DNA from: Pirellula sp.
Lineage (GTDB): Bacteria; Planctomycetota; Planctomycetia; Pirellulales; PNKZ01
Reading direction: 5' to 3'
Length of the DNA stretch: 64,000 bases
Assembly: GCA_013822735.1 (NCBI GenBank)
Contig: PNKZ01000022.1
Span: forward strand, 39,625 to 103,624
A program made the position numbers and the translations under genes. This document shows, piece after piece, positions 2,451-61,379 of the stretch; positions within the stretch are counted from its first letter, which is position 1; every line of letters starts with the position of its first letter. The notes beneath the pieces are model-generated. The model was not told the origin of the DNA. It saw nothing but the letters and a program-made list of their open reading frames with translations, and searched no databases.

Positions 2451-2452
2451 AG

Positions 2453-2541
2453 CGGAGAGGATGGGATTTGAACCCATGGTACGGTGTGACCCGTACACCG
2501 GTTTAGCAAACCGGCGCTTTCGACCACTCAGCCACCTCTCC
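2453..2541 (-). tRNA. tRNA-Ser (anticodon GCU)
   Basis: Minus strand GGAGAGGTGGCTGAGTGGTCGAAAGCGCCGGTTTGCTAAACCGGTGTACGGGTCACACCGTACCATGGGTTCAAATCCCATCCTCTCCG. Acceptor GGAGAGG/CCTCTCC, anticodon stem CCGGT/ACCGG with loop TTGCTAA, long variable arm, T-loop GGGTTCAAATCCC, discriminator G. CCA is not encoded. Confidence 0.9.
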
Positions 2542-39822: not shown

Positions 39823-39893
39823 GAGGATGGAGCCAGACGGCTAGGCAACCGGCTGCAACCCGGTGAAAGTGGGTTCGATTCCCACCGTCCTCT
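39823..39893 (+). tRNA. tRNA-Cys (anticodon GCA)
   Basis: GAGGATGGAGCCAGACGGCTAGGCAACCGGCTGCAACCCGGTGAAAGTGGGTTCGATTCCCACCGTCCTCT. Acceptor GAGGATG/CGTCCTC (one G-U pair), anticodon stem ACCGG/CCGGT with loop CTGCAAC, T-arm GTGGG-TTCGATT-CCCAC, discriminator U73 as expected for Cys. Confidence 0.85.
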
Positions 39894-39909
39894 CTTTGAA
39901 TCTGCAATG

Positions 39910-47716: not shown

Positions 47717-47755
47717 CCCCTCGCCCCTTGCGGGAGAGGGGCCGGGGGTGAGGGG
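47717..47755. repeat. interspersed palindromic repeat CCCCTCGCCCCTTGCGGGAGAGGGGCCGGGGGTGAGGGG
   Basis: Third copy of the family, lying just after the tal stop codon. Confidence 0.7.
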
Positions 47756-47843
47756 CGAACTTCTTGGGAGCGCCAACTTCCTCAATCCGACGCCGCGATA
47801 CTCTCTCAATCATTCACGCCCCCTCTCTCACGCAGCAAGTTCC

Positions 47844-50015
47844 ATGGCCAACGCACTCGATCCTTATTCCTACTGCCCCTGCGGCTCCGGCAAAAAGCTG
47901 AAGTTCTGCTGCCAAGATTTGGCTTCGGAAATTCAACGCATCCACGAGATGCTCGAAGGGGGCCAGCGCGCCGCGGCGCTCGAATACATCGAGTCGCTCG
48001 AGAAGAAGTTTCCGGATCGGGCTTACTTGGTCACGACCAAAGCCCTCCTGCAGTCGATCCTCGGCTCCGACGATAAGGCCGCCGCCACGCTGGAAGATTT
48101 CCTCTCGCGCCATCCCGGCCATCCCGTCGCGCTGGCCGAACAAGCGGTCGTCACCGCCGCGCGGCATGGCGCTCTGGCCGGCATCCAGCCGCTGCAACGC
48201 GCCCTGGAAGCGAGCACTGAAGCCATGTCGGGGCGCGTCGTCGCGGCCATCAGCCGGCTCGGCGAATTGCTATTGATGGAAGGGCGCGTCGCCGCGGCGC
48301 GGGGCCACTTCGTTTTGGCGTACAGCCTCAATCCGCAAGACGAAATGTCGTTGCAATTGCTGGCACGCTTTTTCACCTCGCCCAACATCCCCCTGGTGCT
48401 CAAGAACGAACAGGCGCTCGTTCCCGCTCCCGCCGGTGCGGAGTGGGCCGCGGAGTTCGACGCCGCCGTAGCCGATGCGCGCCGCGGGCTCTGGTGGCGT
48501 GCCGCCGACAAACTAAAGGCGCTCATGCCCAAGGCGGAATCTACGCCGGAGCTCTGGCGCAATTTGGCGGTCTTACGAAGTTGGCTCGCCGACAATCCCG
48601 GCGCCATCACGGCGCTGCGCAAGCTCGCATCGTTGCCGGTCGTTTGGGACGACGCCGTCGATGCCGAAGCACTCGCGCAGATCTACGACGGAATCGCCGA
48701 TCAAGACGTCATCGACGAACTTCGCGCCACGGTCGACCTGCGCAACCTCGACACCGCCAACGAAGTGTTCGCCTCGAACAAGCAGTTCACGCCGTTCCGT
48801 TGGGAGTCGCTCGAAATCGACTTCGGCGATCAGCCCCCTCCGCGCGCGGGCTACTTCCTGCTCGATCGACCGCTGCCGGCGACGGGCGTCGACATCCGCC
48901 GCGAAGATATCCCGCGCATCGTCGCCCGGCTGCTCGTCTTCGGTCGCCAGACCGATCGGGAAGCCCGGCTCGAAGTTTTCGTCCGCCGCACCGAATTGGA
49001 CCTCGTTAAGCAAAATCTTGCCTCGATTCTCCCGGCCGATGCGCTGGGCGCATGGCCCGAACAGCCGGAGAAAATCGACGAGGTGCCGACCGCGGAAGCC
49101 GCGCTCAGCTGGAGTTGGCGACTTCCCGACGACACGCCGCCTGCCCACATTCGCGCGCTCCTTGAAGCCGCGCGTCGCAATGCGGTGCTCAACGTGTGGA
49201 CGCAAACTCCGCTCTCGCGCTTCGACGGTAAAACTCCGGCCGTCGCCGCGAGTGAGGAAAAGTATCGCACGTCGCTTGCCGCGGCCGTGCTCTTGATCGA
49301 ACTCTCATTCTCGCAAGCCTCGACGACCGCCGTCTTCGATGAATTGCGAACCAAGCTGAATATCACACAGCCCGCGGCTCCCGATCCGGCGGAGTTTGGT
49401 CCGCTCGGCGTTCCGTATACCCGGCTCCATCGGCTCGACGTCGCAAAGCTCAGTGACGACGATCTGGTGATGAACTTCCAGCGGGCCCTGCAAGTCGTAG
49501 CACGGCAAGCCGTGCGGAAGCTCGGCCTCGAAGTCGTCGGCCGCGCGAGCCTGAAAGGCAAGATCGATCTGGCCGGCGTCTACGGCCATCTCGCCGATTT
49601 GGAAGAAGCGAGCGACGAAGCAATTCGCTACATCGATCTGGCACGCAAGGCTGCCGAAGAGCAGAAGCAATCGACTGCCCCGTGGGACCTCGAAGAAGTC
49701 GAACTCCGGTTGCGTCGCGGCGAACCGCAAGAGTTCGGCCGACTGGTCGAGCATATCCAATCACAGCACCTTCGCGAGCCCGGCGTGGCGCAAGCCTTGA
49801 TGCAGCTGCTCTATCAGGCGGGCATCGTCGGCCAAGACGGACGGCCGCGCAATCTCCCAGGCGGCGGCGTGGGAGTTCCCGGCGTTTCCGTGCCCGGCGC
49901 GGCGATTCCTTCTTCGCCCGGCGATGGAGGCGGCCTTTGGACGCCAGACGGCGGCGGCAGCCCTGCGCCTGCAGCGGGCGGCAAGTCCGGCCTCTGGGTT
50001 CCCGGAATGGACTAA
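47844..50015 (+). CDS. SEC-C-motif protein with helical-repeat body and Gly/Pro-rich tail
   Basis: ATG at 47844 (MANALDPYSYCPCGSGKKLKFCC). This is a SEC-C zinc motif placed at the N-terminus. The body is a ~650-aa helical region and the C-terminus is Gly/Pro-rich. Confidence 0.75.
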   Translation: MANALDPYSYCPCGSGKKLKFCCQDLASEIQRIHEMLEGGQRAAALEYIESLEKKFPDRAYLVTTKALLQSILGSDDKAAATLEDFLSRHPGHPVALAEQAVVTAARHGALAGIQPLQRALEASTEAMSGRVVAAISRLGELLLMEGRVAAARGHFVLAYSLNPQDEMSLQLLARFFTSPNIPLVLKNEQALVPAPAGAEWAAEFDAAVADARRGLWWRAADKLKALMPKAESTPELWRNLAVLRSWLADNPGAITALRKLASLPVVWDDAVDAEALAQIYDGIADQDVIDELRATVDLRNLDTANEVFASNKQFTPFRWESLEIDFGDQPPPRAGYFLLDRPLPATGVDIRREDIPRIVARLLVFGRQTDREARLEVFVRRTELDLVKQNLASILPADALGAWPEQPEKIDEVPTAEAALSWSWRLPDDTPPAHIRALLEAARRNAVLNVWTQTPLSRFDGKTPAVAASEEKYRTSLAAAVLLIELSFSQASTTAVFDELRTKLNITQPAAPDPAEFGPLGVPYTRLHRLDVAKLSDDDLVMNFQRALQVVARQAVRKLGLEVVGRASLKGKIDLAGVYGHLADLEEASDEAIRYIDLARKAAEEQKQSTAPWDLEEVELRLRRGEPQEFGRLVEHIQSQHLREPGVAQALMQLLYQAGIVGQDGRPRNLPGGGVGVPGVSVPGAAIPSSPGDGGGLWTPDGGGSPAPAAGGKSGLWVPGMD

Positions 50016-50031
50016 GCGACTAGAGTTTGGA

Positions 50032-50124
50032 GAGTTATGAGTTAGGAATTATGAGTTATGAGGTGTTGTCGATTGAGATTGCCGCACGGCAACGAAGTTT
50101 CATAACTCTTAACTCATAACTTCC
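50032..50124. repeat. imperfect inverted repeat of AGTTATGA/TCATAACT units directly upstream of ribD
   Basis: Left arm 50032..50062 gagttatgagttaggaattatgagttatgagg and right arm 50098..50124 tttcataactcttaactcataacttcc. The core is about 19/22 complementary by eye. The right arm ends 3 nt before the ribD ATG. Confidence 0.65.
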
Positions 50125-50127
50125 CCT

Positions 50128-51264
50128 ATGCGTCCCTCGCAACAATCCGACATTCAGCCCGAGCTCGACGCCTGGCACATGGCTCGGGCTTTGGACTTGG
50201 CCGTGCTCGGGCGCGGGCGCGTGGAACCGAATCCGATGGTCGGCTGCGTCATTGCGCAAGGGGCCGAAATCATCGGCGAGGGATATCACCGCAAGTTCGG
50301 CGGCCCGCATGCCGAGGTGGAAGCGCTCGGCGTCGCCGGCAAGCGCGCGGTCGGCGCCACGGCCTACGTCACGCTCGAACCTTGCTGCCATCACGGCAAG
50401 ACTCCTCCTTGCACCGAGGCCTTGCTCGCAGCCGGCGTCGCGCGCGTCGTCTATGCGATGGACGATCCGTTCCCCAAAGTCGCCGGCGGCGGCGCAGCCC
50501 TCTTGCGCAAGGCGGGCATTGCCGTCGAAAGCGGGCTGTTCGAATCGTCGGCACGGCGGCTGAACGCTCCCTATGTTAAATTGCTCGAGCGCGGTCGACC
50601 TTGGATCATCGCCAAGTGGGCGATGACGCTCGACGGCCGAATTGCCGCGGCGACGGGAGATAGCCGCTGGATTTCCGGCGAAGCGTCGCGGGCCGTCGTC
50701 CACGAGCTGCGCGGTCGCTGCGACGCCATTCTCATCGGCGCAGGTACCGCCAAGGCCGACGATCCGCAACTCACCGTACGCCCGCCGGGGCTGCGCGTGC
50801 CGCTGCGCATCGTCGTCGACGATCACGCAGCGCTGCATACCGCCGGCCGACTCGTCGGCTCGATCGCCGAAGCGCCGCTCATGGTTGCCACGTCCGCCGC
50901 GGCGCCGCAGGCCAACATCACACGACTGCAGGCCGCGAAGGTCGAAGTGCTCACGCTGACCGGTGCGTCGCGCACCGATCGCCTCGCCGCCTTGCTCGAC
51001 GAACTCGGTCGGCGTCGGGTCACGAACCTTCTGGTCGAAGGGGGCTCTCACGTCTTCGGCACCTTCCTCGACCTCGGCGAGATCGACGAAGTCCACGCCT
51101 TCGTCGCACCAAAACTGATCGGCGGCGCGAAAGCGCCGGCGCCGGTCGCGGGCCGCGGCCTCGCCAAAATGGCCGACGCACGCCTGCTCGACGACGTGCG
51201 ATGGCGGCAACTCGGCGATGACCTCTACGTCACGGGCCGCGTTAAGAAGCACGCGACGACGTAG
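50128..51264 (+). CDS. ribD: bifunctional riboflavin biosynthesis protein RibD (deaminase/reductase)
   Basis: Deaminase zinc motifs HAEVEAL and PCCHHGKTPPC, followed by a C-terminal reductase domain. Confidence 0.9.
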   Translation: MRPSQQSDIQPELDAWHMARALDLAVLGRGRVEPNPMVGCVIAQGAEIIGEGYHRKFGGPHAEVEALGVAGKRAVGATAYVTLEPCCHHGKTPPCTEALLAAGVARVVYAMDDPFPKVAGGGAALLRKAGIAVESGLFESSARRLNAPYVKLLERGRPWIIAKWAMTLDGRIAAATGDSRWISGEASRAVVHELRGRCDAILIGAGTAKADDPQLTVRPPGLRVPLRIVVDDHAALHTAGRLVGSIAEAPLMVATSAAAPQANITRLQAAKVEVLTLTGASRTDRLAALLDELGRRRVTNLLVEGGSHVFGTFLDLGEIDEVHAFVAPKLIGGAKAPAPVAGRGLAKMADARLLDDVRWRQLGDDLYVTGRVKKHATT

Positions 51265-51291
51265 CTCGCATGCGTCGCGAAGGGGATTGCG

Positions 51292-52605
51292 TTAGCTTCC
51301 GAACGGATTTGCCGAAGGCTCGCCGGCAGGTGCGGCAGGCGTGGGGGCGGGCGTTCCAAATGGCGAGCCCGGAACGTCGGCCGCGGGCGCGGCATCGGTA
51401 GCCGCAGGCGCCAGGGCACCCTCTTTCGGCTTCGGTGCAATTGCGAATCCGGCCGTATGTTCCAGCGGCTTCGATTGAGCACGTTCCCGCAGACACTGCA
51501 ACATTCCGGTCGACGTCCCCAAATAGATGCGATCGCTCGACGTATTGCGCACGGTCAGATCGATGCCCGCAACGGGCATGGAGCCGCGGCGTCCTCCCGT
51601 CTCGGCGTCAAGCACTTGCAACCTTCCCTGCGCATCGAGCAAGTAAAGGTTCTTTGCACCGGCTGCCAAGAATTTCGCGATGCCGGTCGTGTACCACATT
51701 TGAATGCCGGTCAGCGGATTGAGGCGCAACATTTGGCCCGTTTCCGAAATGGCGAACAATTTGCCGTCGATGGCGATGAGCGGGCGCGAAAACGAATTGA
51801 CGCCGCCGGCTTGCCAAACGTCCAAACCCGTAATTTCGTCGAGGCAATAAACGGTTCCGCTGCGCGAAGCGGCATAGACGAACGGCGACATGTACAAAGG
51901 CGCGGCCGTCGCCGCGTCGTTCATGCGGAAACGAAACTGGATCAGCTCTTTTGCTTGCTCGCGTGAGTAGACGTAGCCTTTGTCGGTCGTCCAAAGCACT
52001 CGATTGCCGACCGTCACCGGCGATTGCGGAGTACCCCCCGTGCCGCTGAAGCGCGTCGGCACGTGGTCGAGCAATCGTTCGCGCTTGATCTTGTAGCCTT
52101 CGAGCAGACCGCCGTCGAGCGGCACGTAAATTCGGTCGTCGCTAATTGCCGGTCCCGCCGAGGGAGCGTTGCCCAACCGTTGCGACCAAATCTCGGCGCC
52201 GGTCGAACGGTCGAGCAGATACAGCGTATCGCCGTTGGTGGCGGCTACGTATTTGTCGTTCACCGCCGGCACTTGCGTCTGGTAGTTCGCCTTGCCGATC
52301 TCCGTCACCCAATAGGTGCGTCCCGTCTCGGCGTCGATCCCCTGCAGAAGCGCCGTATTCGTTTGAGCGACGATCAAGCCGCGATGAACAACGACGTTTT
52401 CCACGCGTCCGCGCGCCGGATCAACGCGTAGGGCCGTCGACCACATGCGCTCGAGCCCGAGCTGTTGCGCAACCGGATTCGAAATGAGCTCCGTGCCCGA
52501 CTGCGCGGCGCTGGGTCGCGCGGCGCCGACGAACAGGATGCCGAAGGACACCGTGCGGAAGAACATCGACGTCGTCAATACGCCGGAAAAGATCCCGTTT
52601 GTCAT
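51292..52605 (-). CDS. PQQ-like (BamB-type) beta-propeller repeat protein, secreted
   Basis: 437 aa with a signal peptide. Repeated propeller-blade patterns (..TGRTYW, ..TGAEIW, ..GLDVW, ..GIQMW) and an Ala/Pro-rich C-terminal tail. Confidence 0.7.
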   Translation of the reverse strand: MTNGIFSGVLTTSMFFRTVSFGILFVGAARPSAAQSGTELISNPVAQQLGLERMWSTALRVDPARGRVENVVVHRGLIVAQTNTALLQGIDAETGRTYWVTEIGKANYQTQVPAVNDKYVAATNGDTLYLLDRSTGAEIWSQRLGNAPSAGPAISDDRIYVPLDGGLLEGYKIKRERLLDHVPTRFSGTGGTPQSPVTVGNRVLWTTDKGYVYSREQAKELIQFRFRMNDAATAAPLYMSPFVYAASRSGTVYCLDEITGLDVWQAGGVNSFSRPLIAIDGKLFAISETGQMLRLNPLTGIQMWYTTGIAKFLAAGAKNLYLLDAQGRLQVLDAETGGRRGSMPVAGIDLTVRNTSSDRIYLGTSTGMLQCLRERAQSKPLEHTAGFAIAPKPKEGALAPAATDAAPAADVPGSPFGTPAPTPAAPAGEPSANPFGS

Positions 52606-52899
52606 GACCGCCTACTTGCTGCGAAGTGACTCGGATTGATGTGAGGCCGACCGAAACGACGTTCCGCACGACGCGGAACTTTGTTCCGCCTTTTGGACGC
52701 GAGCGCCGTAACGAAATTATGCGATGCAACCGGCCGCCGTGCCGAGGAAAATCGGCCTTTGAAACACCACGCCCCCGTAAAGACGGGGGGCAATGGCGGA
52801 TGTGAGCCGAGGATTCTATGATAATTGCTCATAACCACGTTCGAAGCGGCAATTTAGGGCCATTCCGAACGATTTTCCCCGGTCGGCGACGATGAGATC

Positions 52900-55800
52900 A
52901 TGGATTTAGCGAACGTGACGCCGCCGGAGCGCTCGCTGAGCCAGGAAATCGTCGGTTATCTCAACTTCTCGGAAGGTCCGCCGGACGCCAAGTTCTATCG
53001 GGCCGTGAACGAAGCGTTTCTCCGCCTGAGCAATGGCCGCCAGCCGCTGCATGCCGCCGCATCGCGCGCCGCGGAAACGCCGCCCCTCTGGCGACTCTTC
53101 GCCGATTGGCTTCGTGCAGAAGCAGTTCGCCTCGCCGCCGAAGAGCCGGCATTCCGTAGCATCGAGCAGGCCGAGGGAGTTCTGAACTCCACGTTCGACC
53201 ACGTGATCCCCGCCTACCGATCGTTTCATCGCGATCTACTGTTTCATCAGCCCGACGACGATCTGTTTCGCCCGTACTTCACGGCGCGGATTCTGCAAAC
53301 CGTGCTCCGCTTCCGCGTCGCCGGCATCGACGACGACGAACTCGTTCCGCATACGCTCGCCAAGCTGAACGATTTCCTTGGTCATCGCCCGACCGCCGTG
53401 CTGCAAAACGAACGGAAGCTGGAACCGTATGAGCACGAGTGGGTCGCGCCGTTGCCGCTCTATCTCGACGGCGCCGGATTCGCGCACGACCACTACCGTC
53501 CCGTACTCGAACAAGCACTTGCGATCTTGCGCTCGACGGACCCCGACGTCCTGACGCGCGCCTACTTCGATCCGGCGCTTTTAGAAGAGTTGGCCGTCGA
53601 TCCCAGGGCCTACGACTTTGATCATCCGGTCAATAAGCGGCCGAATTACCACTTCGGCCAGTGGGATCCGCATCGCATCGACGGTCGCGGTCGTTACCGA
53701 CGCTTCGTCCTCCAAGAAGTCACGCTCGATGCCGTGTTTCAGCGCACGCAAGACCAACACGAGCTTCCGTCGGAGGAAGTGTTGTTCGAAGCCGGCGCCG
53801 TTTTGGCCGGCACCATGCTGATGGCATCGGCCGTGAGCGGCAACGGGCCTGATGCGCACGACTCCAGCGTGACGCTATCGACGTTGCTGCCGCGCATCGT
53901 TCGTTGCCGCGAAGATTTTTACAATCGCCTCCTCAGCAAAGTGCCGGGCCCGCACGGCGACCGGCTCCGCGCGGAAAGTGAAACGCTTCGCCAACCGTTC
54001 GGCGGTGCGCGACAACATCTCAATCAACGGCTCGCCCGCCTGCGCGCCATCCAATTGCAGCACGTTCACCTGGCACAGCTCTTCGCCAAGATGGGCTACG
54101 CCGACGCCGGCCGCCGGCAAGCACAGATCGTTCCCGTCGCTTCGGCACGCATGTTGTGCGAAATCAACGGCGTTATCACGACGATTCATCAGCTCGTCGA
54201 CCGCGGTCAACTGGTTCCCGCATCGGCGGAAGTGCCCGAAGCGGTCGCCTTGTTGCACCGCGCCATCGAATGCGGGGCACTCGTTGATCCTTGGAACATG
54301 CTCGGCTTTCAGGGGCAATTCAGCCTCTTTCCGTCGCTGGAAAACACCGTCCGCGACCATCGCGTCGATGTACTCGTGCACCTCGTGAAGCGGATCCTCG
54401 CGCTGATGGTGCGGCTTGTCGGCGAAGCCGCGGCGGCCGGTGAACACGACCTGCAATCACGTTTGCAAAATCTCCTCGGGTCGCTTGCCGAGTGGTGGGA
54501 CCAGTTCGCCTCCACCACGGTCTCCGGCGTGGATCCGGTCAGCGGCAACGACGCCGTGCAATCGGCCGAACAAGTCGCTGAAGCGCTCGGCGCTTGGCAT
54601 CGCGGCGGAGGCGCGGCCTCGGGCGACATCCAATTTTGGCGCAAGCACGTCGACCATTTCACGAGCCCCAAAACATATGCGCTCGTCGTCGAGACCTTGC
54701 TCGATAAGCGCAACTACGTCGCGGCGATGGGCCTACTGATGCAATGGCTCAGTCGGTTCGGTGAACTTCCGCTGGTGGAAGGAGATTTCTCGTTCCACAC
54801 CTTGGCGACGCGCTGGCTACACGAGATGCTCAGCTTCGAAGAAGCGCCGGGCCTCACGACTCCCGCTTTGCGTCGCGAACTCATCGCAAAATTCTTCGAC
54901 TATCTCGAAGCCAACGCCGATGAGAATTGGTCGGTGCCGCGTTTCGAGCTCTCCGCCGAAGGTCGACGACCGCGCCCCGGCAAGACGCTCGGCGACGAAT
55001 TGGAATCGGTCGACGGCGACGACGAGGAGGACCAAGCGCTCTTCGGCGCCGCGTATGAAGACGTCACTTATCGCGACAGCACGCGCGACGGCAACGAAGG
55101 AAACACGGTCTCCGGCGACGACTCCGAGCCCGGCGAGTACGAACTCGAACTCGAAGCACAGCGACTGATTACGCGTTTGGCGCTCATCGAAACGGCCGCG
55201 CGGCTTTGGAAGACGGTCGCCATCGGCGCGTCGACCGTCGCTGCCGGAACCGATACCCTGCAGTTCGACGTCGATCGGCTCGAAGGCTGGTATCGGCAAG
55301 CCGAAGCCAATCGCCGAGGACTGCTCCATCTGCTCGATCAATTGCATGCCCACAAGCTGCCGACGCCGCGCGGCACGCATGCTTCGCTCGTCGAGTACGA
55401 TCGCCGTCGTCAAGTGAAGGAAGATCTTGAGGCGCGCGTCATCGTCGCGGCCGTCGAGACGATCGAAGCCGGTCGGTTTTTGTTGGCGACCCTCGACGTG
55501 CTGCCGGCCGATTGCGACCTTGTGGAATGGTCGGCCCGATTTGTCGACGTCGTGCGCGGCCTGAAGCGCGGCGACCGCACGGCGCTGGTTGAAGCCATGC
55601 CGCGGCTGCGGAGCACGTTGTCGGAGCAGCCCATTCTCTACGTGCCGCTCTCCAAAGGGGGTAAGCCGCGCGACATCGTCGAGGCGCAAAGCGTGCAATC
55701 GGCGGCGGTGATCCTGCTGCAAGCGATGCCCCGCGCCGGACTCCTTTCCGAAGGCTTCCGGCTCGTCTCGGTCGCTCAATTGATGGAACGGCATCGACCG

Positions 55801-56901
55801 ACGGGCGAAGGGGCGGTGACGGAATTCGATCGCCTGTTCCAAGTCGGCTTCGAAGCGTCGGTCCATGCCTTGATCGACGCCATCGAGTTCAACACCCCGC
55901 AACCGAGCTACGGCGAAGACGTCGATCATTCCGCCGAGCTCTTCGAGGGCCTGCAATCGCTCACGGAAGCTTGGCTCAAACGTTGGAATACGCACTCGCG
56001 CAGCCTGCGCCTCTCGTCGCTGGAGAAGGCGACCGATAAGAAACGTTGGGAGGCGCTGGTCGATTTCATCAAGCGCTACGGCCGCGACCTCTTCACGCCG
56101 AAGTTCCTCAATCTCGGCAACCTCCGCGCGGTGCTGCACCAGCGCGTCGATACGTATTTGAAACGTTTGGAAGAAGACGACGATGCGGAAGCGCGGCCGG
56201 CTCTGCTCGACGCACTCGATAAGGACATCCCGCGCGTCGAAGCCGTCGACTTGCTGAGCATCGTGATCGAGACGCTCATCGAGAACTACGCCGAATTCAA
56301 AGATTACAACAGCACGACGACGCAGAGCGATCAGGGGGACATGCTTTACATCCTCCTCGACTTCCTCCGCTTGCGCCTCGGCTACGAGCGCTTCGCCTGG
56401 AATTTGCGGCCGGTGATGATGGTGCATGAAGTGCTGGTGCGCCGGCAGAAAACGGCCACGGCCGAACTTTGGCGCCGTGCCGTCACCGACCGTACCTGCG
56501 AGGCGGCCGATTGGAACATCGCGCAACTGCGCGAACTCACGCGCAAATACGGCGTGCGGCTGCCGACGATTTCCGATCGGCTCGGCGAACGCTTCGTGCG
56601 GCCGTTGGCCGTCGACCGGTTGCGCGCGTTGGTACGCCCGTCGGTCGTCGAACTCCGCACCGACGGCGACCACACGGCGTTTTCGCTGCTTGAACAAGAG
56701 TTGCTCGAATTCACCGACAACCCCTGCGGCTCCGGGCTCGACGTCCCGGCTTGGCTCTTGGCCCTGGAAGACGAAGCTCGCCGCGTGCAGGCCCAAACCG
56801 ACCGCCGCTCGGCGATTCCCCCAAACCTGCACGAGCGTATTCCCCGCGTGAGGCTCACCTGGGACGAAGCCTTGCAGCAAATGCGCAACTGGGAAGCTTA
56901 G
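52900..56901 (+). CDS. very large hypothetical protein (1333 aa), predicted all-helical, no recognisable motif
   Basis: Uninterrupted ATG-initiated ORF with coding-like composition throughout. No signal peptide, TM helix, P-loop or metal-Cys cluster was seen. An acidic low-complexity linker spans about nt 55000-55160. Confidence 0.75.
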   Translation: MDLANVTPPERSLSQEIVGYLNFSEGPPDAKFYRAVNEAFLRLSNGRQPLHAAASRAAETPPLWRLFADWLRAEAVRLAAEEPAFRSIEQAEGVLNSTFDHVIPAYRSFHRDLLFHQPDDDLFRPYFTARILQTVLRFRVAGIDDDELVPHTLAKLNDFLGHRPTAVLQNERKLEPYEHEWVAPLPLYLDGAGFAHDHYRPVLEQALAILRSTDPDVLTRAYFDPALLEELAVDPRAYDFDHPVNKRPNYHFGQWDPHRIDGRGRYRRFVLQEVTLDAVFQRTQDQHELPSEEVLFEAGAVLAGTMLMASAVSGNGPDAHDSSVTLSTLLPRIVRCREDFYNRLLSKVPGPHGDRLRAESETLRQPFGGARQHLNQRLARLRAIQLQHVHLAQLFAKMGYADAGRRQAQIVPVASARMLCEINGVITTIHQLVDRGQLVPASAEVPEAVALLHRAIECGALVDPWNMLGFQGQFSLFPSLENTVRDHRVDVLVHLVKRILALMVRLVGEAAAAGEHDLQSRLQNLLGSLAEWWDQFASTTVSGVDPVSGNDAVQSAEQVAEALGAWHRGGGAASGDIQFWRKHVDHFTSPKTYALVVETLLDKRNYVAAMGLLMQWLSRFGELPLVEGDFSFHTLATRWLHEMLSFEEAPGLTTPALRRELIAKFFDYLEANADENWSVPRFELSAEGRRPRPGKTLGDELESVDGDDEEDQALFGAAYEDVTYRDSTRDGNEGNTVSGDDSEPGEYELELEAQRLITRLALIETAARLWKTVAIGASTVAAGTDTLQFDVDRLEGWYRQAEANRRGLLHLLDQLHAHKLPTPRGTHASLVEYDRRRQVKEDLEARVIVAAVETIEAGRFLLATLDVLPADCDLVEWSARFVDVVRGLKRGDRTALVEAMPRLRSTLSEQPILYVPLSKGGKPRDIVEAQSVQSAAVILLQAMPRAGLLSEGFRLVSVAQLMERHRPTGEGAVTEFDRLFQVGFEASVHALIDAIEFNTPQPSYGEDVDHSAELFEGLQSLTEAWLKRWNTHSRSLRLSSLEKATDKKRWEALVDFIKRYGRDLFTPKFLNLGNLRAVLHQRVDTYLKRLEEDDDAEARPALLDALDKDIPRVEAVDLLSIVIETLIENYAEFKDYNSTTTQSDQGDMLYILLDFLRLRLGYERFAWNLRPVMMVHEVLVRRQKTATAELWRRAVTDRTCEAADWNIAQLRELTRKYGVRLPTISDRLGERFVRPLAVDRLRALVRPSVVELRTDGDHTAFSLLEQELLEFTDNPCGSGLDVPAWLLALEDEARRVQAQTDRRSAIPPNLHERIPRVRLTWDEALQQMRNWEA

Positions 56902-57013
56902 ACGGTCTTTCGCATCGGCTTGAAACACGGAACGCGTTTCGCCATATTGAACACACGTTCACTTCTGGTGAACGGGCCTCTAAGGAATCGTCCCGTCGCG
57001 AAAGGATGCCGCC

Positions 57014-58693
57014 GTGTCCGACACTCTTCCTTTGGAATCTGCCGCCTACGCCTTGAACGAGCGCTCGCACCCTTCGGAACTCTTCCTCGAACTAACGGTC
57101 GACGACCCGGAGACCATTGCGGCGCTGGTGCAACATGCCGACGGACCCGATCGTGAGAGTTTCGCCCGTCGTGCCTTGCGCATCGGCGTACTGGCGCTCG
57201 GCCAAGCACGAGGACAAATCGATACCTCGGCCGTGCGCGGCGAATGCGAGCGGATGTTGCTGGCGCTGCAAAGCCAATTGCGCGAACATGCCGGCAGCAT
57301 GCAAACACGGCTCTCCGGTACGTTGCAGGAATACTTCGACCCGCAAAACGGCCGGTTTCAAGACCGCGTCGAACGACTGATCAAGCGCGACGGCGAATTG
57401 GAGCAGGTGTTGCGACGCCAGATCGGCGTCGACGATTCGCAACTCGCCAAAACCCTTTCGGCCCACTTCGGCACCGAAAGCCCGCTGATGAAGCGGCTCA
57501 GCCCGCACGAAGCGGAAGGGCTCTTGGCCGCCTTGCGCGATACGTTCGGCAAGCAACTGGAAGTACAACGCGACGCGGTGCTGAAAGAGTTTTCTCTCAA
57601 CAACCGCGACGGCGCGTTGGCCCGGCTCGTCCAAGAACTCACGACCAACCAAGGAAAACTTACCGAAAACCTGCAAGGTCGCATTGATGCGGTCGTCAAA
57701 GAATTCTCGCTCGACGCGGAAGACTCGGCCCTGAGCCGACTGGTAAAGAACGTCACCACGGCTCAGCAAACAATCTCCAGCGAGTTCTCACTCGACAACG
57801 AGAACTCCGCCCTTTCGCGTCTGACCAAGATGCTCAAGTCGGCCGATGCGGCCATCCACGACAATCTCACACTCGATAGCGACACCTCGGCTCTGGCTCG
57901 CCTGAAGCGCGAACTCGTGACGATTCTCGACGCGCAGTCGAAAACGAATCGCGAGTTTCAGGAAGAAGTGAAGGTCGCCATCGCCACGATCACGGCGAAG
58001 AAGCAAGCCGACCAGCAGACGACCCGGCACGGCCTGGTATTCGAACAGGCCATGCACACGTTCCTGCAAGACCTTTGCCGGCAGTCGAACGACATGGTCG
58101 AGTTCACCGGCAACTCCACCGGGCTGATCAAGAATTGCAAAAAGGGGGACTGCCTCGTCGAACTCGGCCCCGAGCACGCGGCGGCCGGCGCGCGCATTTG
58201 CATCGAAGCCAAAGAAGTGGTCGGCTTCGATCTGCGGCAGGCCCGGGCCGAAATCGAAGAAGGACGCAAGAACCGCGACGCGCGGATCGGAATGTTCGTC
58301 TACTCCAAGAAAACGGCCCCCACCGGTCTGGAGCCGATCTCGCGTTTCGGCGACGACGTGTTCGTGATCTGGGACGCTGAAGACGCCACGACCGACATCT
58401 TCCTCAAGCTCGGCCTCACCGTGGCCCGCGCCTTGTGCAGCCGAGCCCAAGCGGAACGGCAGGCCCAACAGGTCGATTTCACCACCGTCGACAAGGCTCT
58501 GCTTGCGATCCAAAAGCGTTACGAAGACTTCGATCAAATCAACAAATACGCCGACTCCATCATCAAGGGGAGCGACGAAATCAAGAACCGCGCCCGCATC
58601 ATGCGCGACGATCTCGAACGCCAAGTCGACCGCGTGGTTCGTCAGATCGACGAATTGAAAGAACTTGTCCATCGCGCCGGGGGAGTCGAGTAA
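57014..58693 (+). CDS. coiled-coil protein with FSLDxxxSALSRL-type repeats and a PD-(D/E)xK-like C-terminal domain (RmuC/DUF2130-like architecture)
   Basis: 559 aa with a GTG start, 112 nt downstream of the giant gene. Repeats span aa 107-297. The putative nuclease pattern is GLVFE(344)..GD(379)CLVEL..ICIE(398)AK(400)E. A C-terminal coiled coil follows. Confidence 0.7.
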   Translation: MSDTLPLESAAYALNERSHPSELFLELTVDDPETIAALVQHADGPDRESFARRALRIGVLALGQARGQIDTSAVRGECERMLLALQSQLREHAGSMQTRLSGTLQEYFDPQNGRFQDRVERLIKRDGELEQVLRRQIGVDDSQLAKTLSAHFGTESPLMKRLSPHEAEGLLAALRDTFGKQLEVQRDAVLKEFSLNNRDGALARLVQELTTNQGKLTENLQGRIDAVVKEFSLDAEDSALSRLVKNVTTAQQTISSEFSLDNENSALSRLTKMLKSADAAIHDNLTLDSDTSALARLKRELVTILDAQSKTNREFQEEVKVAIATITAKKQADQQTTRHGLVFEQAMHTFLQDLCRQSNDMVEFTGNSTGLIKNCKKGDCLVELGPEHAAAGARICIEAKEVVGFDLRQARAEIEEGRKNRDARIGMFVYSKKTAPTGLEPISRFGDDVFVIWDAEDATTDIFLKLGLTVARALCSRAQAERQAQQVDFTTVDKALLAIQKRYEDFDQINKYADSIIKGSDEIKNRARIMRDDLERQVDRVVRQIDELKELVHRAGGVE

Positions 58694-58696
58694 AGA

Positions 58697-59629
58697 ATGT
58701 CCGAACGTGTCTGCTACTTCAACGGCCGCATCATTCCCGAGCGCGATGCGAAGGTCTCGATCTTCGACTCCGCGCTACAAGTCGGCGACATGGCCTTTGA
58801 AGTGACGCGCACTTACAACGGCCGGCCGTTTCGCTTAGACGATCACCTCGAGCGACTCTGGAACAGCCTGACCGCGCTGCGCATCCAACCTGGCCTCACG
58901 CGCGACGAACTCGCCGAAATCACGCTCGACGTACTGGCCCGCAACCAGCCGACGGAAGCGGCCGACGTTGATTGGACGATCCTACACGACGTCTCGCGCG
59001 GTCCCGCCTCCGGCTTCCGTGCGTACTTCACTCCCGACGAACTCCGCGCAACCGTGATCGTCGCCTGCTATCCGCTGGCGGAGAAAATGGCGCAGCTCGC
59101 CCCCGCCTACACCTCGGGCATCGACCTCGTCGTCCCCGATCAGCGCTCGCTCCCGCACGGGCTCCTCAGCGCCTCGATCAAATGCCGCAGTCGGGTTCAC
59201 TACCAACTCGCAAACCTGCAAGCCGACGCCAAGCTGCGCGGCTCGACGGCGATGTTGCTCGACCCGGACGGCTTTGTCACCGAAGGAACCACGGGCAACG
59301 TCTTCTTCGTGCGTAAGGGCGAACTCCTCACGCCGACGACGCGCAACATCCTTTCCGGCGTCACGCGCCGCACGGTGCTCGAACTCGCCGAAGAACTCGC
59401 GATTGCCGCGCGCGAAACCGATGTCACCTTAGACGACGCGCTGGCCGCCGATGAGGCGTTCGTCACCTCAACGAGCATCGGCATCATCCACGCCCGCACG
59501 CTCGAAGGCCGCCCAATCGGCGACGGCAACCTCGGCCCGTTCACGCGGCAATTGCGCGACGCCCTCACCGCGCGCGTCGGCCTCGATTTCGCCGCGCAAG
59601 CGGAAGCGTACGCGGCACGGTTTGCCTAA
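58697..59629 (+). CDS. aminotransferase class IV family protein (divergent paralogue)
   Basis: 310 aa with a fold-type IV pattern, a putative catalytic Lys in SIKCRSRVHYQLA, and EGTTGNVFF. The ATG is 3 nt after the upstream stop codon. Confidence 0.8.
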   Translation: MSERVCYFNGRIIPERDAKVSIFDSALQVGDMAFEVTRTYNGRPFRLDDHLERLWNSLTALRIQPGLTRDELAEITLDVLARNQPTEAADVDWTILHDVSRGPASGFRAYFTPDELRATVIVACYPLAEKMAQLAPAYTSGIDLVVPDQRSLPHGLLSASIKCRSRVHYQLANLQADAKLRGSTAMLLDPDGFVTEGTTGNVFFVRKGELLTPTTRNILSGVTRRTVLELAEELAIAARETDVTLDDALAADEAFVTSTSIGIIHARTLEGRPIGDGNLGPFTRQLRDALTARVGLDFAAQAEAYAARFA

Positions 59630-59780
59630 CTCTCGCAGCGCCGTGGGGCGGCACCCGTAAACGCCGCAAATTCCGCGGCATTTGCCCCATTTCCCAAGGC
59701 CCGAACCTCACGGGCCCCCGCCTTGTCGAGTATCCGCGTCGTGACTAAGCTAGTAGTTTCTTTAATTTGCGGAGTTCGTC

Positions 59781-60281
59781 ATGCGTCATGTGCTGTCGGC
59801 CGTCGTGCAGAACCTCCCGGGCGTGCTTGCGCACATCTCGGGCATGCTCGCATCGCGCGGCTACAACATCGACAGTTTGGCCGTCGGTGCTACGGAAAAC
59901 CCTGAATTTTCGCGGATGACGTTCGTCATCGTCGGCGACGATGCCGTGCTCGAACAGGTCCGCAAACAGCTGGCGAAGATCGTCACGGTCGTCAAGGTCG
60001 ACGACATTAGCTCCCGCGATTACGTCGAACGCGATCTGATGCTCATCAAGGTCTCGGCCGAACCCGGCTTGCAGCGGAGCGCCGTCAAGGAACTGACCGA
60101 CATTTTCCGCGGCCGCGTCGTCGACATCGGCGGTACGGAAGTGATCGTCGAGATCTCCGGCCAAGAGCGGAAGATCGAAGCGTTCATCGAATTGATGCGT
60201 CCCTACGGCATCAAGGAAGTTGTGCGAACCGGACGCATCGCGATGGTCCGCTGTGCGAAACCTTCGGAAGCGGCGGTTTAA
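59781..60281 (+). CDS. ilvN: acetolactate synthase small (regulatory) subunit
   Basis: 166 aa with an ACT-domain start (HVLSAVVQNLPGVLAHISGMLASRGYNIDSLAVG) and an IlvH-type C-terminal domain. Confidence 0.9.
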   Translation: MRHVLSAVVQNLPGVLAHISGMLASRGYNIDSLAVGATENPEFSRMTFVIVGDDAVLEQVRKQLAKIVTVVKVDDISSRDYVERDLMLIKVSAEPGLQRSAVKELTDIFRGRVVDIGGTEVIVEISGQERKIEAFIELMRPYGIKEVVRTGRIAMVRCAKPSEAAV

Positions 60282-60374
60282 GTCGCGCTTCGAACTCAGT
60301 CGGCGCGCCGAGTCGAGCTCGGCGGCTAAATATACAAACCAAGAACTAAGAACCTCGAACGAAGAACCCCCACC

Positions 60375-61379
60375 ATGCCCGCCACGATTTATTACGACAA
60401 AGACGCCGATCTCGCCGCCCTTAAGGGAAAGACCATTGCCATCATCGGCTACGGCTCCCAAGGGCACGCTCAAGCCCAGAACCTCCGCGACTCGGGCCTG
60501 AACGTCATCATCGGCCAGCGCCCGGGCAGCCCCAACTACGACCTGGCCGTGAGCCACGGGTTCAAGCCGATGTCGGCCGCCGACGCCACGAAGGCCGCCG
60601 ACGTCATCAACATTCTCCTGCCGGACGAAGTGCAGGGAGACGTCTACCGCGCCGACATCAAGCCGAACCTGAAGAAGGGCGCCATCTTGATGTGCTCGCA
60701 CGGGTTCAACATCCACTTCGGCCAAGTCGAACCGCCCGCCGGCCACGATGCGTTGCTCGTCGCCCCAAAAGGCCCCGGCCACTTGGTGCGTAGCGAGTTC
60801 GAAAAGGGGGGCGGCGTGCCGTGCCTCATCGCTTTGAGCAACGGCGCGAGCGAAGAAACTCGGAAGATCGGCCTCGCATACGCCAAGGGCATCGGCGGCA
60901 CCCGCGGCGGCGTCATCGAGACGACGTTTGCCGAAGAAACCGAAACCGACCTCTTCGGTGAGCAAGTCGTGCTCTGCGGCGGCGTCAGCGCGCTGGTGAA
61001 GGCCGGCTACGAGACGCTCGTCGAAGCCGGCTACCAACCGGAAATGGCCTACTTCGAATGCATGCACGAGCTCAAGCTGATCGTTGATCTCTTCTACCAG
61101 GGCGGCTTGAACTACATGCGTTACAGCGTGTCGAACACGGCCGAATACGGCGACTACACGCGCGGCCCGCGGATCGTCACGGAAGAGACGAAGAAGGAAA
61201 TGAAGAAGATCCTATACGAAATCCAAAGCGGCCAATTTGCCCGCGATTGGCTGTTGGAAAACAAGGCGAACGCCCCGGCGTTCAAGGCCACGCGCCGCCG
61301 CGAACGGAACCATCCGATCGAAGTCGTCGGCAAGCAACTCCGCCGCCTCATGAGTTGGATCAAGGCGAAAGAAGTCTAA
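60375..61379 (+). CDS. ilvC: ketol-acid reductoisomerase (class I)
   Basis: 334 aa with [17 protein letters not shown] and the LFGEQ..LCGG motifs. Confidence 0.95.

Follow-up and report, generated by a model that had tools for sequence, protein, structure and literature searches.

The DNA analysed here, hereafter the window, is a stretch of 64,000 nucleotides (nt) from a Pirellula sp. genome (assembly GCA_013822735.1, contig PNKZ01000022.1, positions 39,625 to 103,624 of the forward strand). Positions 52900-58693 of the window carry two long genes, here termed gene 1 and gene 2, which an earlier reading of the letters alone, the original prediction, had described as an uncharacterised module of a giant helical protein and a coiled-coil partner with a nuclease-like fold. 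The two open reading frames (ORFs) that it reported, with a gap of 112 nt between them, are present.

52900..56901, plus strand: gene 1, ATG start, 1333 residues, predicted tetratricopeptide repeat (TPR)-like alpha-solenoid that looks cytoplasmic
56902..57013, plus strand: spacer of 112 nt between gene 1 and gene 2
57014..58693, plus strand: gene 2, GTG start, 559 residues, helical repeats followed by a putative PD-(D/E)xK nuclease core related to Mrr_cat and DUF2130

The plus-strand frames are taken as real genes because at least 2910 full-length protein homologues exist for gene 1 and no fewer than 2811 for gene 2, with N-termini that line up with the called starts. A 553-residue NCBI protein from a Pirellula sp. 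metagenome-assembled genome is 100% identical to gene 2. The sequence here is 62% G+C and long antisense ORFs also occur. One of these, a 703-residue ORF at 54817..56928 on the minus strand, was set aside as a high-GC shadow ORF, the homologues backing the plus-strand frames instead.

Gene order in the window and among relatives

The original prediction treated the genes as a two-gene module and named non-syntenic orthologues beforehand as the observation that would speak against it. This is largely what we see. Our synteny survey drew on 80 related loci, each with flanks of as much as 10 kb, and 62 of them have at least 2 kb downstream. Only 7 of these 62 have gene 2 immediately downstream of gene 1, and the adjacency is confined to two clades of the gene 1 neighbour-joining tree, the window's own and one that holds two Lacipirellula records (L078 and L079). 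In the latter clade, loci that have the adjacency are mixed with loci that lack it. Homologues of gene 2 located on contigs of 0.14-1.8 Mb occur singly among varied housekeeping genes, with no gene 1 within 8-10 kb, and distant homologues of gene 1 have no gene 2 nearby. Since gene 1 and gene 2 are not neighbours in most related genomes they probably do not form a dedicated two-gene system.

The order and orientation common to the two clades are best explained as an inherited gene order that has since decayed, an explanation that fits the repeated occurrence of purH, trpC and an MBL-fold gene in the vicinity of one or other of the two genes across genomes. Our preferred interpretation, with a probability of about 0.6, is that gene 1 and gene 2 are two independently conserved planctomycete chromosomal genes, adjacent by inherited order and not the components of a dedicated system. 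The case carries a more general caution, that a giant protein next to a nuclease in one genome does not make a system.

The alternative that survives best, which we nevertheless regard as unlikely, is a functional DNA-maintenance pair. The solenoid would recruit or regulate the nuclease, like the scaffold-nuclease pairs of repair or chromosome organisation, and the ancestral adjacency would have been lost in many lineages with the proteins still cooperating in trans. Such a pair would be consistent with the same order and orientation in nine loci from the two clades, where the gaps range from 112 to 1000 nt and gene 2 identity from 42 to 98%, with the large size and apparently identical broad lineage distribution of both families, and with an old shared region marked by the purH, trpC and MBL-fold genes. 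The spacer in the window also has no terminator-like hairpin; a single weak sigma-70-like match within it (56920-56948) is a consensus match and not evidence of function. Against cooperation stand the 55 of 62 loci that lack the adjacency, the distance of more than 8-10 kb between the genes in genomes with large contigs, the absence of gene 2 near distant gene 1 homologues and, in the window itself, a coupling of gene 2 to ilvE (3 nt) that is tighter than that to gene 1.

The interpretation of two independent chromosomal genes is in keeping with their surroundings. These are of a housekeeping nature, with RibD and an exported PQQ/BamB-like propeller upstream and ilvE-ilvN-ilvC directly downstream, the last being the aminotransferase/ilv cluster that gene 2 had been said to adjoin. 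The ilvE start follows the gene 2 stop codon so closely (58691-58699) that gene 2 is probably co-transcribed with the branched-chain amino-acid genes in this genome. The gene 2-ilvE pairing was observed solely in the window's own clade (L001 and L002). The G+C content of the two-gene block, 0.61-0.63, matches that of the flanks, an Rfam scan of positions 50000-61000 found no RNA family, and the only tRNA genes in the window are tRNA-Ser(GCT) and tRNA-Cys(GCA), the nearest 13 kb from the block. Base composition, tRNA distance and neighbours thus bear out the description of a housekeeping context with no integrase, tRNA junction or compositional shift.

59781-60281: ilvN, after ilvE
60375-61379: ilvC, after ilvN
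2452-2541, minus strand: tRNA-Ser(GCT)
39823-39894, plus strand: tRNA-Cys(GCA)

Architecture and conservation of gene 1

Gene 1 had been predicted to possess no P-loop, metal-binding cysteine cluster, signal peptide or transmembrane helix, and we likewise find neither a Walker A motif nor a signal peptide, and its six cysteines are scattered. The highest Kyte-Doolittle score over 19 residues, 1.78, falls at residues 294-312 (nt 53779-53835, helix VLFEAGAVLAGTMLMASAV), a value that we take as borderline for a membrane segment. The helix is conserved and, at high confidence in the model, buried within the solenoid; judged from that model it would not be an obvious transmembrane anchor.

Searches with gene 1 detect no family in Pfam, NCBIfam or PADLOC (0 Pfam and 0 PADLOC families at E≤1, which includes the Pfam TPR, HEAT and ARM repeat models), and neither single-sequence nor profile queries match any PDB sequence. 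An AlphaFold2 model covering residues 1-1200, built with 58 sequences, has a predicted local distance difference test score (pLDDT) of 81.5 and a predicted template modelling score (pTM) of 0.72. It is almost wholly helical with some low-confidence loops and forms an extended superhelix of paired-helix repeats. Comparison of the model with the PDB using Foldseek returns TTC21B/IFT-A, Ski3, Ctr9, Nup188 and karyopherins, with E-values from 1.7e-4 to 3e-3 and probabilities of 0.92-0.98 to TTC21B, Ski3 and Ctr9. Because the template modelling (TM) scores are only about 0.1, with root-mean-square deviations above 25 Å, the likeness to TPR/solenoid scaffolds is one of class. The same search against BFVD gave nothing meaningful. 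The model and the fold matches agree with the proposed alpha-solenoid in two halves, and on this predicted structure gene 1 is a TPR-like alpha-solenoid of about 1300 residues, which looks cytoplasmic and whose two halves are not homologous. That the halves are duplicates was rejected on the hhalign result (N-terminal against C-terminal half, probability 0.2%), and an (alpha/alpha)6-barrel enzyme in the central region was rejected as no barrel enzyme occurs among the PDB fold matches. The parts distinguished are as follows.

53377..53769, plus strand: alpha/beta insert, residues about 160-290, with model strands at 185-189, 230-234 and 268-272
53770..54969, plus strand: central helical solenoid, residues 291-690, model helices, per-block conservation 0.68-0.84
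54970..55134, plus strand: acidic disordered linker, residues 691-745 (E 17%, D 15%, G 14%)
55135..56898, plus strand: C-terminal helical solenoid, residues 746-1333, from the model (to residue 1200)

The insert contains the densest cluster of invariant polar residues, among them a 25-residue motif at 234-258. Its invariant positions are Tyr177, Glu180, Glu230, Asp234, Arg236, Asp239, Arg247, Asn249, Asp256, Asp261 and Arg268. An acidic disordered linker had been placed at about nt 55000-55160, which fits a segment with pLDDT below 50 at residues 691-743 (about nt 54970-55128). This linker holds a conserved motif, AAYExVTYRDSTxDG (residues 717-731; nt 55048-55092), in which Ala717, Ala718, Tyr719, Asp726 and Asp730 are invariant. 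A second flexible and conserved loop, YKDYNSTTTQSDxG (residues 1133-1146), has invariant Thr1141, Gln1142, Ser1143, Asp1144 and Gly1146 and ends in STTTQSDxG (residues 1139-1146; nt 56314-56337). Given their position in mobile parts of the model, AAYExVTYRDSTxDG and STTTQSDxG resemble either short linear motifs for binding or mobile loops of an active site.

Mean column identity over 41 gene 1 sequences is 56%. The best conserved part of the protein is residues 351-500, with block maxima of 0.84 at residues 351-400 and 451-500, and this part includes the motif ECGALVDPWNxLGFQGQFSLFP (457-478), dense in invariant polar residues. As far as the aligned sequences indicate, conservation of this order is unusually strong for a scaffold. 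The family occurs in at least 597 GTDB species genomes, and the genus and family names in the match titles (Anatilimnocola, Blastopirellula, Lacipirellula, Thermoguttaceae and others) are those of what we take to be Pirellulales lineages. Clustering at 50% identity gives 1528 clusters at E≤1e-3, 1118 at 1e-10 and 550 at 1e-30, and matches stay full-length down to 32% identity. The contigs of distant members carry PSCyt2/PSD1 genes with DUF1501, gene pairs typical of planctomycetes. Gene 1 represents an unannotated and very widespread family across Planctomycetia.

Such conservation raises the question of whether gene 1 is an enzyme, with an active site of unrecognised type at residues ~160-500, the solenoid serving as a substrate-binding surface and gene 2 being unrelated. 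The invariant residues that could furnish such a site are Asp234, Arg236, Asp239, Arg247, Asn249, Asp256, Asp261, Arg268, Glu297, His320, Ser322, Arg371, Asn375, Asp463, Asp486, Arg488 and Asp490, and block conservation of up to 0.84 with an architecture that persists full-length to 32% identity would be in line with catalysis. We hold this to be rather improbable. Searches of families, PDB sequences and folds linked gene 1 to no enzyme, and conserved polar residues may equally mark protein-protein interfaces.

A putative nuclease core in gene 2

Direct searches of gene 2 against Pfam, NCBIfam, PADLOC and the sequences of the PDB gave no match (Pfam and PADLOC at E≤1), the PDB being queried with single sequence and profile alike, and RmuC (PF02646) does not match it. 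DUF2130 (PF09903) matches neither gene 2 nor its 33 aligned homologues. Invariant residues were taken from the alignment of these 34 sequences, which share 51-87% identity. In combination with an AlphaFold2 model they divide the protein into four parts.

57074..57211, plus strand: N-terminal helical element, residues 21-66, LxLTVxDxxT...ALRIGVLALxQARGQxD, common to haloarchaeal relatives
57575..57913, plus strand: four helix-loop repeats, residues 188-300, loop motif FSLDxExSALSRL
58028..58378, plus strand: PD-(D/E)xK catalytic core, residues 339-455, predicted from the model and invariant residues
58385..58678, plus strand: single long C-terminal helix, residues 458-555, pLDDT 78-91, kept in haloarchaeal relatives

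The N-terminal invariants are Asp31, Leu38, Arg47, Ala54, Ile57, Gly58, Gln64, Ala65, Arg66, Gly67 and Asp70; the model assigns the N-terminal helices low to moderate confidence. The repeat motif, (F/L)(S/T)L(D/N)xxxx-AL(A/S)RL as a regular expression, occurs in four copies starting at residues 193, 231, 258 and 285. The model helices break exactly at these four conserved seven-residue loops, so that the repeat-bearing coiled coil originally proposed can be refined to a series of helices interrupted by four FSLD loops. The long C-terminal helix is possibly a coiled-coil or oligomerisation element, to judge from the model. The highest hydropathy value is 1.02, and there is no transmembrane segment and no N-terminal membrane anchor.

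The core is modelled with confidence (pLDDT 84-91 for residues 341-455). Its elements, helix 341-358, strands 361-364, 380-383 and 394-400, helix 407-421 and strand 425-431, run in the order alpha-beta-beta-beta-alpha-beta. In the C-terminal third, His339, Gly340, Phe343, Glu344, Asp360, Gly378, Asp379, Glu398, Ala399, Lys400, Glu413, Arg418, Asn420 and Arg421 are invariant. Glu344 lies on the first helix, Asp379 just before the second strand and Glu398-x-Lys400 on the third, so that gene 2 displays both the canonical fold order and the catalytic residues of PD-(D/E)xK proteins. Foldseek against the PDB gave a best E-value of 6e-3 (probability 0.97). The six best fold matches are PD-(D/E)xK nucleases, including EcoT38I, the DdmD nuclease domain, McrC and MspJI, with BamHI, AspBHI and a Cas4-family protein further down.

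A second line of evidence comes from remote relatives. A tblastn search of gene 2 against plasmids identified seven haloarchaeal proteins of 395 residues, 22-28% identical. Alignment of the haloarchaeal and gene 2 profiles with hhalign (probability 99.8%, E 1e-29) spans the N-terminal element, the core and the C-terminal helix, the repeat stretch of gene 2 being gapped and largely an insertion with respect to these relatives. Glu344, Asp379, Glu398 and Lys400 align with Glu189, Asp224, Glu239 and Lys241 of the haloarchaeal family. That family matches Mrr_cat in 28 of 30 members (best E 1e-6) and DUF2130 in 11 of 30 (best E 6e-5), and because it is homologous to gene 2 we assign the latter as a PD-(D/E)xK nuclease relative. 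On this comparison of sequences gene 2 is a protein of the Mrr_cat/DUF2130 branch, the link to the named families being transitive. The model, the invariant residues, Foldseek and hhalign all support the PD-(D/E)xK-like core put forward for gene 2. Within this known nuclease fold, gene 2 constitutes a new subfamily that bears repeats.

The haloarchaeal relatives are encoded on megaplasmids, in variable regions (L085:5797-6984, L086:5470-6657, L095:4680-5864, L096:4620-5810 and L097:4659-5816). Their neighbours are helicases (UvrD-like, DEAD/DEAH and SNF2), AAA ATPases, VWA and MBL genes, a transposase and an AddAB-like pair. Our reading is that this nuclease family is mobile or defence-associated in haloarchaea and a fixed chromosomal core gene in Pirellulales.

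Roles, alternatives and known systems

From its sequence and predicted structure, gene 2 would be a DNA endonuclease that depends on Mg2+ and forms oligomers by way of its helical parts. By analogy with RmuC-type coiled-coil nucleases, gene 2 not being a member of the RmuC family, it may act in DNA repair, recombination or the processing of aberrant DNA in Pirellulales and not as a mobile restriction or defence gene. On the same analogy, the originally proposed part in DNA repair, recombination or chromosome organisation is plausible for gene 2. Gene 1 might, tentatively, serve as a scaffold or adaptor on which other proteins are assembled, and the conserved insert could form a pocket for ligand binding or catalysis. 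Its involvement in an envelope-linked process is hinted at by the envelope proteins that recur as its divergent neighbours.

The commonest neighbour of gene 1 is a gene for an exported beta-propeller with PQQ repeats, BamB-like, which scores far under the BamB equivalog cutoffs. In the window a gap of 294 nt (52606-52899) separates it from gene 1. Among the 60 loci whose upstream flank is long enough, 45 have the divergent propeller beside gene 1 (median gap 286 nt), an arrangement kept far more often than the adjacency of gene 1 and gene 2. A second type of divergent neighbour, a MotA_ExbB operon, adjoins the gene 1 homologue in three of seven distant loci (31-33% identity).

51292..52605, minus strand: exported PQQ-repeat (BamB-like) beta-propeller gene, Pfam PQQ_2, hydrophobic signal-like N-terminus
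L090:4703-9504, minus strand: MotA_ExbB operon, divergent from the gene 1 homologue
L091:4643-9517, minus strand: MotA_ExbB operon, divergent from the gene 1 homologue
L093:3-3050, minus strand: MotA_ExbB operon, divergent from the gene 1 homologue, second gene cut by the contig end

These operons encode a MotA_ExbB protein of 445-475 residues that has a helical tail; in L090 and L091 two coiled-coil proteins come next, one of about 700 and one of about 400 residues. The MotA_ExbB protein matches the PADLOC ZorA2 models with E-values of 1.9e-11 (L090) and 2e-5 (L091). No MotB-like or known Zorya effector gene was seen. Neither the window nor the 80 Pirellulales loci yielded any MotA_ExbB- or ZorA-like sequence or any other part of this operon. 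Taken together, the envelope-type divergent neighbours give weak hints of an envelope connection for gene 1. Downstream, the genes vary among loci and gene 1 has no conserved operon partner, purH, trpC, an MBL-fold gene and a response regulator each occurring in at most 12 of the 80 loci. One distant homologue (L099:8300-13984, about 36% identity) is encoded 200 nt past rpoA-rplQ and in the same direction, where the main ribosomal protein cluster ends. Further upstream in the window, a 755-residue ORF at 47748-50015 on the plus strand has weak TPR matches only, under the Pfam cutoffs, and is kept upstream in the closest relative, L001.

Several observations weigh against the interpretation of an independent solenoid scaffold and a chromosomal nuclease. 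Gene 2 itself reaches no Pfam nuclease model, Mrr_cat is touched by only 2 of the 34 gene 2 homologues with an E-value of 0.013, and the gene 2 fold matches are weak (best E 6e-3). The fold matches of gene 1 are generic (TM about 0.1), and the protein is more strongly conserved and has many more invariant polar residues than typical passive scaffolds, which makes an enzyme of a kind not yet recognised a possibility. That two genes are divergent neighbours says little about shared function, and the propeller is exported whereas gene 1 looks cytoplasmic. Finally, wherever gene 1 and gene 2 adjoin, their order and orientation are the same; such loci occur in two separate clades, with a gene 2 identity of 42-56%, and some functional coupling is possible.

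A bolder proposal, speculative and in our estimation improbable, is that gene 1 would be a so far unrecognised cell-biology factor common to the class Planctomycetia, for which model bacteria have no counterpart, coupling a cytoplasmic process to the envelope, and gene 2 a domesticated Mrr-type nuclease in the service of the chromosome. The process in question might be FtsZ-independent budding or division, or else a remodelling of the envelope. The modelled solenoid would then act through its conserved pocket and flexible-loop motifs, and its divergent partners would be the BamB-like propeller in Pirellulales and, in another order, a ZorA-like MotA/ExbB stator with two coiled-coil proteins.

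Defence genes are typically patchy in distribution and sited in islands. Gene 1, with its presence in at least 597 species, housekeeping neighbours and absence of a G+C shift, shows neither patchiness nor a mobile-island setting. PADLOC-DB 2.0 contains no family that matches either window protein at E≤1, and none that matches a distant gene 1 homologue (P0490); tblastn found no match for gene 1 among plasmids or for gene 2 among phages. No ZorA/ZorB pair lies beside an effector in the window or the 80 Pirellulales loci, a ZorA2-like neighbour being seen only at the three distant homologues. Anti-phage or anti-plasmid defence, with a large sensor or scaffold and an Mrr-like effector nuclease resembling those of type IV restriction, could draw on the Mrr_cat-type domain of the closest annotated relatives of gene 2, on the siting of those relatives in variable regions of haloarchaeal megaplasmids beside helicases, AAA ATPases and VWA/MBL genes, and on the ZorA2 matches (E 1.9e-11 and 2e-5) of the MotA_ExbB proteins that adjoin three distant gene 1 homologues, but we consider it very improbable given the lack of PADLOC matches, the stable housekeeping loci of both genes across hundreds of species, the absence of an integrase, tRNA junction or G+C shift and of any ZorA-like gene in the window or the 80 loci, and the rarity with which gene 1 and gene 2 adjoin. 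Nothing indicates defence in this lineage, and the search results, core-like conservation and housekeeping contexts side with a lineage-specific role other than defence, towards which the original prediction leaned.

The two independently conserved genes that we favour bear on a wider feature of these bacteria. Much of the division and envelope machinery that is standard in bacteria is missing from planctomycetes. They also have many lineage-specific proteins of unknown function, which in Planctopirus limnophila include 108 that are essential and specific to the phylum (PMC10632474). With 1528 clusters at 50% identity, gene 1 belongs among the larger of the lineage-specific families and is not even assigned to a domain of unknown function (DUF); it has now been delimited, modelled and divided into domains, with its invariant residues mapped. 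Gene 2 ties a large planctomycete family to the Mrr_cat/DUF2130 nuclease branch, and presents a contrast between haloarchaeal relatives in plasmid-borne, helicase-rich variable regions and a stable core gene in Pirellulales.

Among known proteins, gene 1 most resembles the giant TPR superhelix scaffolds, TTC21B/IFT139 of IFT-A, Ski3 and Ctr9, in its size and all-helical repeat architecture. It differs from them in the alpha/beta insert, a far stronger conservation and the lack of a Pfam TPR match, and the known scaffolds are eukaryotic. The membrane-coat-like proteins of the Planctomycetes-Verrucomicrobia-Chlamydiae (PVC) group consist of a beta-propeller followed by an alpha-solenoid (PMC2799638). 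The conserved side-by-side placing of a planctomycete beta-propeller gene and an alpha-solenoid gene recalls them in layout. The PVC proteins are single polypeptides, whereas here the genes are separate and divergent, and the propeller has a signal-like N-terminus that the solenoid lacks.

For gene 2 three nuclease families offer comparisons. RmuC has a long helical region followed by a PD-(D/E)xK domain, is recombination-limiting and is encoded by a stand-alone chromosomal gene. Gene 2 would be similar in having a helical region before its putative PD-(D/E)xK domain and in being a stand-alone chromosomal gene. It differs in having no sequence match to RmuC and no N-terminal membrane anchor. 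In the published PD-(D/E)xK superfamily, RmuC appears as a family with a part in recombination, and DUF2130 as one of unknown function (PMC3424549). With Mrr_cat (PF04471, type IV restriction) gene 2 shares the order of the core and a D...(E/Q)xK signature with an upstream helix glutamate. Unlike Mrr, it has no N-terminal winged-helix DNA-binding domain, the core being flanked by helical repeats and a long C-terminal helix, and it is a stable core chromosomal gene and not a patchy restriction gene. With DUF2130 (PF09903, COG4487) it has in common a plan of long helices and a PD-(D/E)xK core. What sets gene 2 apart from DUF2130 is the four FSLD-loop repeats, which among the sequences compared are confined to the planctomycete branch.

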